Shown: in pieces, positions 20,660 through 63,800 of the stretch
Layout: every line of letters begins with the position of its first letter
Numbering within the stretch: position 1 is the stretch's first letter
Source of the DNA: Octopus sinensis
Taxonomy: Eukaryota
DNA length: 64,000 nucleotides
Reading direction: 5' to 3'
NCBI RefSeq assembly: GCF_006345805.1
Contig: NC_043026.1
Location: 11,697,579 to 11,761,578, forward strand
Program-made: the position numbers and the translations under genes
The notes under the pieces: model-generated
Seen by the model: the letters and a program-made list of their open reading frames with translations, nothing else
Told to the model about the DNA's origin: nothing
The model's database searches: none

Positions 20660-20895
20660 TACCTATTTCTTTATTACCCACAAGGGCCTAAACACAGAGG
20701 GGACAAACAAGGACAGACATAGGTATTAAGTCGATTATATCGACTCCAGTGCGTAACTGGTACTTAATTTATCGACCCCGAAAGGATGAAAGGCAAAGTC
20801 GACCTCGGCGGAATTTGAACTCAGAACGTAACGGCAGACGAAATACGGCTACGCATTTCACCCGGCGCGCTAACGTTTCTGCCAGCTCGCCGCGT
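20660..20895 (-). mobile_element. tRNA-derived SINE family B (Meta-domain-like)
   Basis: Minus strand GAGTTCAAATTCCGCCGAGGTCGACTTTGCCTTTCATCCTTTCGGGGTCGATAAATTAAGTACC, resembling the MetaSINE central domain; tail TGTGGGTAATAAAGAAATAG. Confidence 0.8.
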
Positions 20896-20899
20896 TAAG

Positions 20900-21470
20900 A
20901 TGGCAAAATATATCTGACATCGTTTCAATAGCACTGAGAGGAAAAGGGGCTCAAATGGGGGTCAGCTTCTATCGCACTGCCATACAACAGACGCATGCGC
21001 ACTAAGATTGCTTCCGTTTATTTCTTCACTTCCCAATTTTTGCCTCCTTAATGAATTCCTTTTAATCAAGCACCATGCACAGTAATTAAGCATTTATCGT
21101 CCACTGCACACGCTTTTATAATACATTTTTCAGCAATTCTATTCACAACTACCATACACACACACGCAGTTATAACAACACTGTCCTTTATAAAACATCT
21201 CCATAAGTATTCAACAATGAAAATATTTCATCTTTAGTCATTTGTTGGCATTCTTTCGATATAACTCGACAAAACCAAAACCTTTCACTTCGGGTGTTTC
21301 CGTGGGTTGTGGAGTATAGATATAACGAAATTATGCCAGCAAGGCGATCCTTCGAAACGTTTCACTTCGGGTGTTTCCGTGGGTTGTGGAGTATAGATAT
21401 AAAGAAATTATGCCAGCAATGTCTCGTTTTAAACTTGAAGAAAAAGAAGCCTCGCCTATTTGTTCTTACC
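20900..21470 (+). promoter_or_regulatory. Orphan duplicate of the ZF3 promoter and exon 1 with a mutated donor
   Basis: Near-identical to 27810-28310; CGCATGCGCA 20992-21001; donor reads ATAAGT (21203) instead of GTAAGT (28116); no plus-strand ZF ORF follows. Confidence 0.65.
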
Positions 21471-25883: not shown

Positions 25884-27580
<1,697 letters not shown>

Positions 27581-27902
27581 GGTATGACGAGGGAAGTTCT
27601 TTTGAAGTTACCGTGCATGGGAAGCATTGATGTACATGTGTGTGTGTATGTGTGTTTGATGGGGTGTGGGAGACAGAAAGTATCGACCCCGAAAGGATGA
27701 AAGACAAAGTCGACCTCGGCGGAATTTGAACTCAGAACGTAACGGTAGACGAAATACGGCTACGCATTTCGCCCGGCGCGCTAATGCTTCTGCCAGCTCG
27801 CAGCGTTAAGATAGCAAAATATATCTGACGTCGTTTCAATAGCACTGAGAGGAAAAGGGGCTCAAATAGGGGTCAGCTTCTATCGCACTGCCATACAACA
27901 TA

Positions 27903-28115
27903 CGCATGCGCACTAAGATTGCTTCCGTTTATTTCTTCACTTCCCAATTTTTGCCTCCTTAATGAATTCCTTTTAATCAAGCACCATGCACAGTAATTAA
28001 GCATTTCTCGTCCACTGCACACGCTTTTATAATACATTTTTCAGCAATTCTATTCACAACTACCATACACACACACACGCAGTTATAACAACACTGTCCT
28101 TTATAAAACATTTCC
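27903..28115 (+). promoter_or_regulatory. Putative promoter and non-coding exon 1 of ZF3
   Basis: CGCATGCGCA 27903-27912; donor CC|GTAAGT at 28116; acceptor ATTTCAG ending 30447. Confidence 0.65.
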
Positions 28116-29069
28116 GTAAGTATTCAACAATGAAAATATTTCATCTTTAGTCATTTGTTGGCATTCTTTCGATATAACTCGACAAAACCAAAACCTTTCA
28201 CTTCGGGTGTTTCCGTGGGTTGTGGAGTTTAGATATAACGAAATTATGCCAGCAATGTCTCGTTTTAAACTTGAAGAAAAAAAAAAGCCACGCATATTTG
28301 GTTCTTATCTGTTTCATGGGTGGATGTAAATTCCGCAAATTTCCAAGCAGAAAACAGGATCGGACTGTCATTTGCTTCCACGGAAATATCCGAAGTGAAG
28401 TGCTTTGATTTTGTCGAGTTATATCGAAGGAATGCCCATTTGTTTTTGACGAATCGATTCTTTGTGTCTGTCGTACCCTTTATACATGAAACTTGGCTGA
28501 TTTGAGCGTGATTTGGCTGCTGTTTCTGGCTACGAAACCTATTTTGTTGACCGTCAATCGTTGCCGCGTTTTTTTGTTTTTGATTTAGTTTGAGAAATAT
28601 TTTGTATTACACTTCAGTCACCCTATTTTAATTTGGTTTCGACCCGAGCAAAAAAAAAATAATAAAATAGTGCAAAAGGTATATAACAATATATAGTAAA
28701 CGAATATTTAAAAAAATCCGCACTGGCGAACGGGGGTCGGAGGGGAGGACTTGGAAAATTCACATCGAGAATGTTCCGAGTCCTCTCACCACTTCACCGT
28801 CTGTCGTCGAAATTTTTTTCATCATATTCGTTTAATACACTTTGTTTTACACCAAGTAGACTAATTTTGGGGTTTTTTTCTTCAATTTTTGTGACAGGGG
28901 GTTGGTGGGGTGCGGACTCGAATAATTTACACGATCCAGTGACTCTGGTCGAACACTGGAGTTTAAAGGTCAACGTCTGAATTTTCCGAGTCCTCTCCCC
29001 CGCCCCACCCCCGTTCGCAAGCTCGCATTGTTTGTCTGTTTGTTTTTTTTTTTGTTTTTTTCATATTCG

Positions 29070-29248
29070 GGCGATCCTTCGGTATAGGTACCGTACGTAC
29101 CGGAAGTGGCTTTCTTTACATTTCTGAAGATAACAGAAACCCTTTTCTCCTACCCCTAACCCTAACACAAACCCTAACCCCCCATATATATATAAAAAAT
29201 GTCATGAAATGTATCCAGTACTTCCGGTACCTATACCGAAGTTACGCC
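29070..29248. mobile_element. Small MITE with imperfect TIRs and an 8-bp TSD
   Basis: GGCGATCCTTCGGTATAGGTAC ... GTACCTATACCGAAGTTACGCC flanked by CATATTCG on both sides; related pieces at 12896-13008, 13220-13310 and 35810-35875. Confidence 0.7.
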
Positions 29249-29752
29249 CATATTCGTTTACTACCTGTTGTGTTACACCTATTACACTATTTCTTTTCTC
29301 ATTTTCGTGACCAGGTGGGGTTACTGGATCGTGTGAATTATCTGAGTCTCGCACCCCACCCCCAGCACAATTTTTTTCTTTTGAAATAAGTGCACTAGGT
29401 GTAAAATAAACATCTAATAACCAAATATGAAGCAAAAAAAGAAAAATTCGCCGACGGACGGAGAAGTGGTGAGAGGACTCGGAACATCCCCGATGTGAAT
29501 TTTCCAAGTCAAACCGTTCAACAGTTACCAGCATGGAAAATGTGTTCTATCATGGTGATGATGACATTTTTGGATAGAGTGTCTTCAATCATGTTTGTCC
29601 AGTCAAAGCTGACCTGGGGCTGAATAACCATGTCCAATTATATTTCTGGAAAGAGAAATTTATTGTTGACTGTTTTGTAGTTTAATATATATATATATAT
29701 ATATATATATCTATATATATATATATATAATATATGTATATATATATGTATA

Positions 29753-30072
29753 TAATTTACAAGATAAGGCAAAAGAAAAATTCTAATGCCGAAAAAAAGA
29801 CAATAATTGTCAATAAATCATTATAATTTATGTGTCTCGAAACAAACCGATAGAAATCTCTAAAAAATTTCAGCGTATTTGCCGCTGAAGAGGGGAAAAT
29901 TTCTTACGAGTTAACCCCGAAATTGGACCAATACGGTAATAACAAATCTTTTTGAGATTTCAATCGGTTTGTTTCAAGACGCATAAATTATAATGGTTTA
30001 TTGACAATTATTGTCTTTTTTTTCGGCATATTTGGCATTAGAATTTTTCTTTTGCCCTTATCTTGTAAATTA
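29753..30072 (+). mobile_element. Penelope-like or retrozyme-like inverted-repeat element inserted in (TA)n
   Basis: Arms 29753-29870 and 29944-30072 are reverse complements; hammerhead in the loop; (TA)n on both sides. Confidence 0.7.
29879..29939 (+). ncRNA. Minimal type I hammerhead ribozyme
   Basis: TTGCCG-CTGAAGA-GGGG..CCCC-GAAA-TTGG A CCAA-TA-CGGTAA: all core nucleotides and stems I-III present; predicted cleavage after A29933. Confidence 0.8.
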
Positions 30073-30168
30073 TTTATAAATTTAACCTTTAAAGGTATTT
30101 TTTGATATGCTGGCCATTGATAAAATTTTTTTCCAGAAAAAAAAAAATTTTATCCTATTTAGTTATAA

Positions 30169-30241
<73 letters not shown>

Positions 30242-30859
30242 TATAATGTTAACACAATGTAAAGGTGTAGTTTACAAATGTGTATGCTTCTGTTATGTAG
30301 ATTTTAGTAAATTAAAATGTTCAGTCGTTAAAGTAAATATTTGTTCCTGCAATTAATCTCTATAGAAATGTTATCAATTTTCTACTATTAAATCTCTGAT
30401 TTTCAATTAACTCTGTATTTTAATCTGATGTTTCTTCATTATTTCAGAATAACAGATGACATTGGCATAACAGAAGAGGAACCTTCAAACCATTCTATCT
30501 TTTAAAGACTGAATGTAAATGTTATATGGAAGAGACAGCTACCACTGTTTCTATGAATTCATTGTAAAATTCCAAAGACATTTTGCTCTGAACTGAGATT
30601 ATCAACAAAATTTCTGCCGTAATCTGGAGTGTATACAAAGTGAGTTTGTGTGCTCTAATTAAACTTGGAGAAATTTTCATAAGAGATTGTAGATAAAGGT
30701 AACATTGAACAGAAATGCAGCAGCAGAAAAAGTTGTAAAGAATAAACAATAGAAATAGAATCAACAAGAAATATATAGAAATATAGAAATATTTTGATTT
30801 GCGAAGGGAAAAGTATTGCAAAAACGTCAAAAACTTAAAATTGATTTTTTCTTGAAGAC

Positions 30860-32713
30860 ATGCCTAAAGATGGAGGAAAACCATCGTGTGAAAAGTCATT
30901 CTCCCAGAAAGGTAACCAGTTTAAACACAAGCGTATTCATACAGGGAAGAAACAATATGGATGTGATATCTGTGGGAAATCATTCTCTCAGGATGGATAC
31001 CTAACTAAACACAAACGTACTCATACAGGGGAGAAGCCATATCACTGTGATATCTGTGGCAAATCATTCTCTCAGAAAGGAAACCTAACTAAACACAAAC
31101 GTACTCATACAGGAGAGAAACCATATCACTGTGATATCTGTGGTAAATCACTCTGTGAAAGTGATAAGTTAACTGAACACAAACGTATTCACACAGGAGA
31201 GAAACCATATCACTGTGATATCTGTGGCAAATCCTTCTCTCGGAATGGAAGCCTAACTACACACAGACGTACTCATACAGGAGAGAAGCCATATCACTGT
31301 GATATCTGTGGTAAATCATTCTCTGAAGGCAGTGCTCTGAATTCTCACAAGCGAATTCATACAGGGGAGAAACCATATTGCTGTAATATCTGTGGTAAAT
31401 CATTCACTCAATGTTTTGACTTAACTAAACACAAACGAATTCATACAGGAGAGAAGCCGTATCACTGTGATGTCTGCGGTAAATCATTCTCTTTGACATC
31501 AACCCTAACTACACACAAACGTATTCATACAGGAGAGAAACCATATAAGTGTGGCACCTGTGGTAAATCTTTCACCCGAAATAATACGTTAACTGCTCAC
31601 AAACGGATTCATACGGGAGAGAAGCCATATCAGTGTGATATCTGTAGTAAATCATTTTCTCGATATGAATGCTTCACTATACACAAGCGTCTACATACAG
31701 GAGAAAAACCATATCAGTGTAATATCTGTGGTAAAACATTCCCTTCAACTTCTCAGTTACGATCACACAAACGTATTCATACAGGAGAGAGGCCTTATCA
31801 CTGTGATAAATGCGGTAAATCATTCCATAAAAGTAATGCTTTAAAAGTACATAAATCTATTCATACAGGAGAGAAGCCATATAACTGTGATATCTGTGGT
31901 AAATCATTCTGTCAAAAGGTTGATTTAAATAAACATAGGCGTATTCACACAGGTGAGAAGCCATACAGTTGTGATATCTGTGGTAAATCATTTTCTCAAA
32001 ATATTCACTTAACATCTCACCAACGTATTCATACAGGAGAGAAGCCATATCAGTGTAATATCTGTGGTAAATCATTCTCTGGAAGCAGTGCTTTGAATTC
32101 TCACAAACGTATTCATACAGGAGAGAAGCCATACCAGTGTGATATCTGCAATAAATATTTTTTGCGCTCTGACTATTTGACTATTCACAAACGTATTCAT
32201 ACAGGAGAGAAACCATTTCAATGTGATGTCTGTAAGAAGTCATTCTCTGACAGAACTAGATTAAGAACACACAAGTATATTCATACAGGAAAGAAGCCAT
32301 ATAAGTGTGATATTTGTGGGAAGTCATTCTCTCAAAGTAGTAATTTGATGACACACAAGCGTAGTCACACAGGGGAGAAGCCATATCGGTGTAATATCTG
32401 CAGTAAATCATTCTCTGTAAGTTCTAGCTTAACAATACATAGACGTATTCATACAGGAGAGAAACCATATCAGTGTGATATTTGTAAGAAGTTATTCTCT
32501 GACAGTAGTAGTTTAAAAGCACACAAGTATAGTCACACTGGTGAGAAGCCATATCAGTGTGATATCTGTGGTAAATCATTCTCTGTAAGTAGTAGCTTAA
32601 CAATACATAAACGTACTCATACAGGGGAGAAGCCTTATAAATGTGATATTTGTAGCAGATCATTTTCTCAACTTAGTAATTTAAGAGTACACAAATGTTC
32701 TCATACAGGATAG
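30860..32713 (+). CDS. Poly-C2H2 zinc-finger protein ZF3 (617 aa, ~21 fingers)
   Basis: Tandem C2H2 fingers; C-terminal array nearly identical to ZF1 ([22 protein letters not shown]); AATAAA at 33560. Confidence 0.93.
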
Positions 32714-53280: not shown

Positions 53281-53830
53281 TCATCATCATCGTTTAACGT
53301 CCGTTTTCCATGCTGGCATGGATTGGACGGTTCGACTGGGGGGGGGGTCTGAGAATCCAGGAGGCTGCACCAGGCTCCAATTTGATCTGGCAGTGTTTCT
53401 ACAGCTGGATGCCTTTCCTGACACCAACCACTCCGAGAGTGTAGTGGATGCTTTATACATATATATACATCATCATCATCATCATCGTTTAACGTCCGTT
53501 TTCCATGCTGGCATGGATTGGACGGTTCGACTGGGGTCTGGGAATCCAGGAGGCTGCACCAGGCCCCAATCTGATCTGGCAGTGTTTCTACAGCTGGATG
53601 CCTTTCCTAACGCCAACAACTCCGAGAGTGTAGTGGGAGCTTTTTACGTTCCACCGGCACAGGGGCCAGAGGAGCTTGCATCGATGGATGATCGGATGGT
53701 GTTTTTTGCGTGCCACCGACACGGAAGCTAGTCAAAGCGGCACTGGCATTAGCCACATTCGGATGGTGCTTTTTACGTGCTGCTGGCACGGGTTTCACTA
53801 CTACATTTTCCATTTGATTTGATTCTGATA
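53281..53830 (-). mobile_element. Two tandem family C SINE-like copies
   Basis: (ATC)n GTTTAACGTCCGTTTTCCATGC at 53281 and 53470. Confidence 0.8.
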
Positions 53831-63208: not shown

Positions 63209-63751
63209 GGCGCAGGAGTGGCTGTGTGGTAAGTAGCTTGTTTACCAACCACATGGTTCCGGGTTCAGTCCCACTGCGTGGTACCTTGGGCAAGTGTTTT
63301 CTACTATTGCCTCGGGCCGACCAAAGCCTTGCGAGTGGATTTGGTAGACGGAAACTGAAAGATGCCCGTCGCATATATATATATATAAATATATATAGGC
63401 GCAGGAGTGGCTGTGTGGTAAGTAGCTTGTTTATCAACCACATGGTTCCGGGTTCAGTCCCACTGCGTGGTACCTTGGGCAAGTGTTTTCTACTATTGCC
63501 TCGGGCCGACCAAAGCCTTGCGAGTGGATTTGGTAGACGGAAACTGAAAGATGCCCGTCGCATATATATATATATAAATATATATAGGCGCAGGAGTGGC
63601 TGTGTGGTAAGTAGCTTGTTTACCAACCACATGGTTCCGGGTTCAGTCCCACTGCGTGGTACCTTGGACAAGTGTCTTCTACTATAGCCTCGGGCCGACC
63701 AAAGCCTTGCGAGTGGATTTGGTAGACGGAAACTGAAAGAAGCCCTTCGTA

Positions 63752-63800
<49 letters not shown>

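Follow-up and report, generated by a model that had tools for sequence, protein, structure and literature searches.

The hammerhead-bearing element of the window, the whole 64,000-nucleotide stretch of Octopus sinensis DNA analysed here, is very probably a truncated copy of a 470-base non-coding tandem family, likely a non-LTR retrozyme put into (TA)n by the enzymes of Penelope-like elements (PLEs), and its hairpin is likely a by-product of insertion. Judged by sequence comparison, the window copy is a truncated derivative of the retrozyme monomer, not a tandem. A previous sequence-only reading of this DNA had proposed a multicopy, non-autonomous retroelement of the PLE/retrozyme kind, a proposal that holds in view of the 470-nt unit without an ORF, its tandems and the covariation of its ribozyme. 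The features of the locus are the following (positions count from the first letter of the window).

28116..30447, + strand: putative intron in the 5'-UTR of the zinc-finger host gene, 2332 nt, GTAAGT ... TTTCAG (splice sites conserved in the window paralogues)
29685..29754, no strand: left (TA)n target or flank (direct reading)
29752..30167, + strand: whole insertion, made of an inverted truncated copy, a junction and a direct truncated copy of the 470-nt monomer (blastn to L016:1321-1790; paralogous empty sites)
29752..29869, - strand: inverted arm, monomer ~253-380, ending at the 'short' 3' end, with a 9-10 nt deletion (88% identity to the monomer)
29869..29889, + strand: junction hairpin TTCAGCG/CGCTGAA (sequence; folding predicts that it masks the core together with the 5' strand of stem I)
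29873..30167, + strand: direct arm, monomer 181-470, up to the 'long' 3' end (94% identical to the monomer)
29879..29939, + strand: type I hammerhead motif with an AUA triplet and a predicted cut after 29933 (direct reading, descriptor scan, covariation across subfamilies)
30075..30167, + strand: optional 'tail' of ~90 nt, monomer 381-470, lying between both 3' ends of the family (end classes)
30171..30245, no strand: right (TA)n target or flank (direct reading)
30860..32713, + strand: C2H2 zinc-finger ORF of the host gene (open reading frame)

The hammerhead motif can be read directly from the sequence. Stem I is formed by TTGCCG (29879-84, 5' strand) and CGGTAA (29934-39, 3' strand), the core by CTGAAGA (29885-91) and GAAA (29919-22), stem II by GGGG (29892-95) and CCCC (29915-18), which enclose an inner 5-bp hairpin, and stem III by A-TTGG-A-CCAA-T (29922-32), followed by the AUA triplet. 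The sequence, a descriptor scan and shuffles agree on the elements that define a hammerhead (CUGANGA, GAAA and NUH, with three stems), and every part of the complete core named in the sequence-only reading was found. The motif was the sole hammerhead-like match on both strands of the window; at 5/4/3 bp none of 200 shuffled windows matched the descriptor, and 13 of 200 did so at the loosest thresholds. The Rfam hammerhead search suggested as a check returned no match for the motif, either at the gathering threshold or at E<=10.

The available text of PMC4209133 describes minimal hammerheads as having a stem I of 4-5 bp, a stem II of 7-8 bp with a 5' unpaired base and little or no stem III. The motif of the window, which had been taken for one of this minimal type found in PLEs, is of canonical size by that description, its stem I being 6 bp long, its stem II base 4 bp without a bulge and its stem III a real one of 4-5 bp. 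Its assignment to type I stands, and its palindromic stem III is predicted to favour dimers: two copies are predicted to co-fold into a double hammerhead at -34.9 kcal/mol, versus -22.2 for two monomers, as expected from a stem III with a 1-nt loop.

The family unit is a 470-nt monomer (reference L016:1321-1790), found at the mapped loci as head-to-tail tandems, 5'-truncated single copies and head-to-head pairs. Head-to-tail arrays of 470-nt units with the hammerhead occur, for example, at L005, L044, L047 and L088. The longest stop-free frame in the doubled monomer has 75 codons, and its GC content is 32%. A genome search for the family gave 1799 candidates, the best 40 of which were scored; the exact ribozyme 25-mer occurs at least 305 times in the genome and a degenerate ribozyme pattern at least 931 times, with no match to the reversed control in either case. 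The genome-wide search that had been proposed therefore finds a multicopy and tandem family. At L016/L017 (G000:C4:41041051-41042129), a whole inverted-plus-direct insertion has itself been tandemly duplicated, with a period of 589 bp.

Three subfamilies make up the family. Among 38 copies selected through their upstream part, conservation at the individual core positions is 87-100%, and in 34 full young copies the mean conservation of the core exceeds the overall value by a small margin (96.6% versus 94.6%). One subfamily, ~77% identical, is more telling on selection than these young copies. The covariation alignment held 53 of the 111 distinct ribozyme rows; not included were rows from loci L061-L140, which the 25-mer had selected, eight that contained indels or were cut at an end, and the matches from outside the family. 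Stem cells were paired in 94.2% of cases versus 90.2% in shuffles, none of 500 being as high, and slid controls gave 25-48%. Compensatory changes on both sides were observed in stems I, II and III between subfamilies ~77% identical; the number of pairs with such changes, 8 versus 5.5 in shuffles, is less striking (25 of 500 shuffles). The main changes have been passed on by common descent and represent about five inherited events rather than 82 independent cells. The invariance of the core in this alignment arises by construction, because rows were chosen by the core pattern, and core position 7 varies freely. Core conservation and changes in three helices, on which the sequence-only reading had staked its interpretation, are thus both present.

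In the window, the insertion lies inside (TA)n, as had been noted, and blastn to the monomer places its end at 30167, ~95 nt beyond the end at 30072 given previously. The tail contains a short palindrome at ~30119-30154. The long hairpin of inverted arms described in the sequence-only reading is real: it folds at -166 kcal/mol (z -23; 0/100 shuffles as good), and 116 of its pairs enclose the hammerhead site. The two arms differ by five uncompensated substitutions in 110 sites and by one deletion. The junction hairpin between them is likely a product of snap-back synthesis during end joining.

The generality of this layout was assessed in two samples. The ribozyme-keyed sample took in 80 loci out of the first 100 ribozyme matches listed, with close matches merged and the already sampled loci and the last three left out; for the 3'-keyed sample, 40 loci were drawn from among the first 100 of the 254 matches to the 3' 24-mer, with ~26 mostly ribozyme-bearing loci, nearly all of them sampled before, and the last six left out. 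The head-to-head inverted layout was found at 80 of the 120 sampled loci (53/80 ribozyme-keyed and 27/40 3'-keyed). The length of the arms varies widely, with inner breakpoints spread across monomer positions 1-437, and many junctions carry either an overlap of 1-5 nt or a short insert copied from a local template, which is consistent with microhomology-mediated joining. Truncations do not pile up at the cleavage site, as only 5 of 160 inner ends fall at monomer 239-244.

The position of the ribozyme in these inverted pairs is not fixed. Among the 27 inverted loci of the 3'-keyed sample, it is present in neither arm at 16, in one arm at nine and in both at two, a ribozyme-less share that is inflated because ribozyme-bearing loci were left out of this sample; inverted hairpins without any ribozyme clearly exist. 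Both arms carry the ribozyme in 22 of the 53 ribozyme-keyed inverted loci and in 24 loci across both samples, and there the ribozyme is fully base-paired. The unit is therefore the 470-nt tandem monomer and not, as had been supposed, a fold-back with the ribozyme in its loop. The arms decay independently: over 70 arm pairs, their divergence is 3.7% of sites, and 316 rare variants are unshared versus 23 shared, with nothing in the sequences to suggest upkeep of the hairpin. In a comparison meant to show whether both arms were copied from the same molecule, the arms were closer to each other (3.7%) than to the median other copy (7.6%) but no closer than to the best other copy (2.6%).

Copies end at one of two places, monomer ~380 (..GTAAATTAT) or 470 (..GTTATA/ATTATA), and both of these 3' ends share 3-5 nt with the (TA)n that follows. 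Direct-only copies have 21 long, 15 short and three other 3' ends. Of the 80 inverted loci, 57 have both ends classed and 23 have at least one unclassed end; one end at 380 and the other at 470 were found in 54 of the 57 (p=4e-13 versus 50:50), which offers a useful clue to the mechanism.

PLEs are known to insert in a similar manner. The available text of Craig et al. (PMC8557442) reports a PLE tail of 30-40 bp, often at one end only, together with inverted 5' copies. According to that of Frangieh et al. (PMC11167929), a PLE protein for which a dimeric form is predicted nicks both strands, extends them and starts at two internal sites bounding the tail, with no strand difference in the start site in vitro. 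The two-end, inverted pattern is therefore already known qualitatively; the 90-nt tail length and the near-strict pairing of the ends are new in the retrozyme family. Like the EN+ PLEs Neptune and Poseidon, as portrayed in the accessible portions of PMC8557442, PMC11167929 and PMC4209133, the family has an optional 3' tail between two fixed ends, an inverted 5'-truncated copy, partial tandems, AT-rich or (TA)n targets and a hammerhead in the repeat. Unlike them, it has no RT-EN ORF, and its ribozyme is full-sized rather than minimal. The tail is ~90 nt long here, compared with the 30-40 bp reported in the text of PMC8557442, and the ends share 3-5 nt with (TA)n, whereas the anole PLE described in PMC11167929 began at non-homologous sites in vitro.

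The retrozyme family shows the complete PLE insertion signature of tail, inverted 5' copy, partial tandems and microsatellite target when it is compared with a Neptune-type family of the same genome. This Neptune family, of the type found at L033, has a 38-bp tail, (TA)n flanks and a divergence similar to that of the retrozyme, and four of its loci with an adjacent inverted copy show long and short ends.

In the cycle that we propose, tandem copies would be transcribed, and two ribozymes, dimerising via the palindromic stem III, would release monomers that may then be circularised. A PLE endonuclease/RT would nick both strands of a (TA)n run, and cDNA would be primed at each nick by a TA homology of 3-5 nt, the start lying at monomer 470 on one strand and at 380 on the other. 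Microhomology or snap-back repair would then join the two partial cDNAs into an inverted pair of variable length. A more speculative step, put forward only tentatively, is that the paired 380/470 ends might record a single Penelope RT dimer that holds one tandem or circular retrozyme RNA at both tail borders and copies it onto both nicked strands at once. If true, such copying would account at once for the tails and the inversions of PLEs and would link retrozymes to them by mechanism.

Potential partners are abundant in the genome. GIY-YIG PLE copies accounted for 147 matches among the best 150 scored of 5029 candidates, and some of their open frames span ~780-880 codons with RT and GIY-YIG domains. 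Monomer-like sequence was found in none of the 20 GIY-YIG loci examined out of thousands of candidates, and in 30 Neptune loci, again out of thousands, it was present only in one chimera and in one nearby separate copy. The linkage to a PLE ORF that the sequence-only reading had proposed to look for was thus limited to that chimera, and the autonomous partner is postulated, as no PLE sharing the monomer sequence was found in these loci. PLE fragments lie near at least about 9 of 210 family loci, among the matches listed, which is most simply explained if both target (TA)n.

The chimera lies on the minus strand at L033:700-1838 (G000:C30:11885387-11886525), where a retrozyme arranged as [314-470][1-380] runs, at its 380 end, directly into the GIY-YIG motif of a 5'-truncated PLE; we take this PLE to be Neptune-type from its linker cysteine motif, a criterion in line with PMC8557442. 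A LINE-like RT fragment is located upstream. The chimera may have arisen by template switch or nested insertion and is regarded as a lead only. A 13-nt AT-rich resemblance between the Neptune pLTR and the retrozyme tail, seen by eye, was treated as chance. Hammerhead-like motifs with U3-A8 or otherwise altered cores and a 4-nt palindromic stem III were also seen by eye at the ends of Neptune-type PLEs (L148:2360-2460, L157, L159:2060-2100 and the 3' end of L033). The U3-A8 core variant is described in the available text of PMC4209133.

The monomer could instead be no more than the pLTR, the terminal repeat of an autonomous PLE, with the copies being its 5'-truncated insertions and not an independent retrozyme. 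The tail, the inverted 5' copy and the (TA)n targeting are PLE traits, and a preprint (bioRxiv 10.64898/2026.07.22.740005) derives, in its accessible part, vertebrate retrozymes from pLTRs. However, full 470-nt units adjoin further units head-to-tail and not an ORF, the unit has no long ORF of its own, and 79 upstream flanks showed no common continuation except in duplicate loci and two unrelated pairs. We therefore consider this origin improbable, and the retrozyme reading is retained in what follows.

At the locus itself, the donor GTAAGT at 28116 and the acceptor AG at 30446-47 are both conserved in the window paralogues, and a contig from run X12 (presumed RNA) starts fitting at 30448, its loose 5' letters being the end of the paralogue's upstream exon. 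The conserved splice sites and the joining of the paralogue's exon to 30448 in this contig support by homology an intron around the insertion. Three of the four sequencing runs compared with the acceptor region gave matches, none with coverage at 30250-30410, a gap taken as uninformative. The insertion had been placed in sense orientation in the first intron of the zinc-finger gene ZF3; the orientation and, by homology, the intron stand, and its rank as the first is putative. The paralogous zinc-finger genes at ~15066 and 49505 have an empty site with a few TA units only.

Several other features of this region were noted. The TA site upstream of the conserved acceptor is empty at two paralogues and seems to hold a different insertion at two others (~15066, 39215, 49505 and 57835), suggesting an insertion hotspot. 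The same putative intron contains an imperfect inverted-repeat element at 28740-29510, with arms of ~127 nt that are 80% complementary. Segment 27046-27580 is a 96.5% copy of 26434-26972, and 27681-28255 is a 97% copy of 20770-21342, in which the donor reads ATAAGT and not GTAAGT. Two different 189-nt tandem repeats of dispersed repeat sequence lie at 53281-53647 and 63209-63775; the descriptor scan detected no hammerhead motif in either.

Folding of the locus had been suggested as a check, and it gave the very stable hairpin but not stem I, which fails to form in the predicted fold because 29869-75 pairs with 29883-89 (7 bp) and hides the core. The predicted probability of stem I is ~0 in the window copy, with a penalty of 4.3-5.3 kcal/mol, compared with ~0.5 and 0-1 kcal/mol in the intact monomer. 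As a probability below 0.05 is predicted for 50 of 73 copies, the block is frequent rather than particular to the window copy, and may be exaggerated by the predictions. Cleavage of the host RNA in cis, which the sequence-only reading had considered when it proposed that the ribozyme could cut the zinc-finger pre-mRNA, is unlikely, since the junction hairpin is predicted to block the core and the window has no second copy. Likewise, the release of a circular RNA from the locus, also proposed, needs two tandem ribozymes, and the window has one.

These predictions bear on a second alternative, in which the fold-back would be the functional unit, either as a selected rod-like RNA with the ribozyme in its loop or as a structure co-opted to cut or regulate the zinc-finger pre-mRNA. 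The great stability of the hairpin and its sense orientation in the putative intron would fit such a role, as would the prediction that, for the 81-nt loop alone, a free family ribozyme pairs with the cut site in trans (-40.0 versus -30.7 kcal/mol). However, in the 430-nt context the best predicted co-fold is not the cleaving dimer (in the full hairpin the trans-cleaving dimer is a pseudoknot, a fold outside this scoring), and the core is predicted to be blocked. Against it also stand the widely varying arm lengths, the ribozyme-free inverted loci (with their share inflated by sampling), the loci where a ribozyme in both arms is fully base-paired, the uncompensated substitutions and deletion in the arms of the window, and the paralogous genes that do without the insertion. 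A function of this kind is very improbable. A search for an ADAR imprint in the genomic copies of the family showed no A>G excess (A>G 7.5 versus T>C 6.5 per 1000 sites, p=0.31). The window copy is probably a passive, decaying intronic passenger with a core predicted to be blocked.

Miniature inverted-repeat transposable elements (MITEs) and fold-back DNA elements are short and non-coding, with inverted arms in a TA context, and the window element resembles them in all of these respects. A MITE-like DNA transposon with terminal inverted repeats at TA that had captured a hammerhead is nevertheless largely refuted and scarcely credible, because the outer ends differ in nearly all classed loci with no fixed symmetric termini, the inner breakpoints and arms vary, and many copies are direct-only, 5'-truncated or tandem, all of which argues for retrotransposition.

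Among known systems, the family most resembles the metazoan non-LTR retrozymes of coral, mussel and axolotl, as far as these are covered in the available texts of PMC7229834 and bioRxiv 10.64898/2026.07.22.740005. It shares with them non-coding tandem units with one type I hammerhead each, a GC content under the 50% criterion, dispersed monomers with short tandems, and co-occurring PLEs. As in those metazoan retrozymes, the 470-nt circle is predicted to be strongly self-paired (z -5.4, 40 shuffles), and as in the axolotl retrozyme, the palindromic stem III is predicted to act as a dimer. The unit of 470 nt exceeds the 150-450 bp given in the text of PMC7229834 and lies inside the 51-972 bp range of the preprint. 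The family departs from the retrozymes those sources describe in that most of its sampled copies are truncated and lie in head-to-head inverted pairs, with the 3' ends at two fixed sites, and in that it is known here from genomic DNA; the words 'inverted' and 'microsatellite' are absent from the main text of PMC7229834. In Xenopus, according to the accessible part of the preprint, one of nine tested retrozyme dimers cleaved in vitro, which counts against the reading adopted here, as do the missing Rfam match, the small margin of core conservation in young copies, the small number of independent compensatory events, the lack of a truncation peak at the cleavage site and the failure to find an autonomous PLE with monomer sequence in the loci examined. 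A literature search found no earlier description of the 470-nt family, which could be listed in Repbase/Dfam or in supplements.

Ordinary PLE-type insertion accounts for the striking appearance of the locus, which in itself is probably inert and carried along passively; the family is of more use. With the full PLE insertion signature on a non-coding retrozyme, insertion anatomy now backs a link that has hitherto been argued from co-occurrence and trees. As a short template with two fixed, mutually exclusive start sites, the family offers a compact substrate for studying how PLE tails and inversions form. Extrapolated from the 80 of 120 sampled loci with the inverted layout, it would have seeded hundreds of long hairpins in the genome, which could be ADAR substrates when transcribed.
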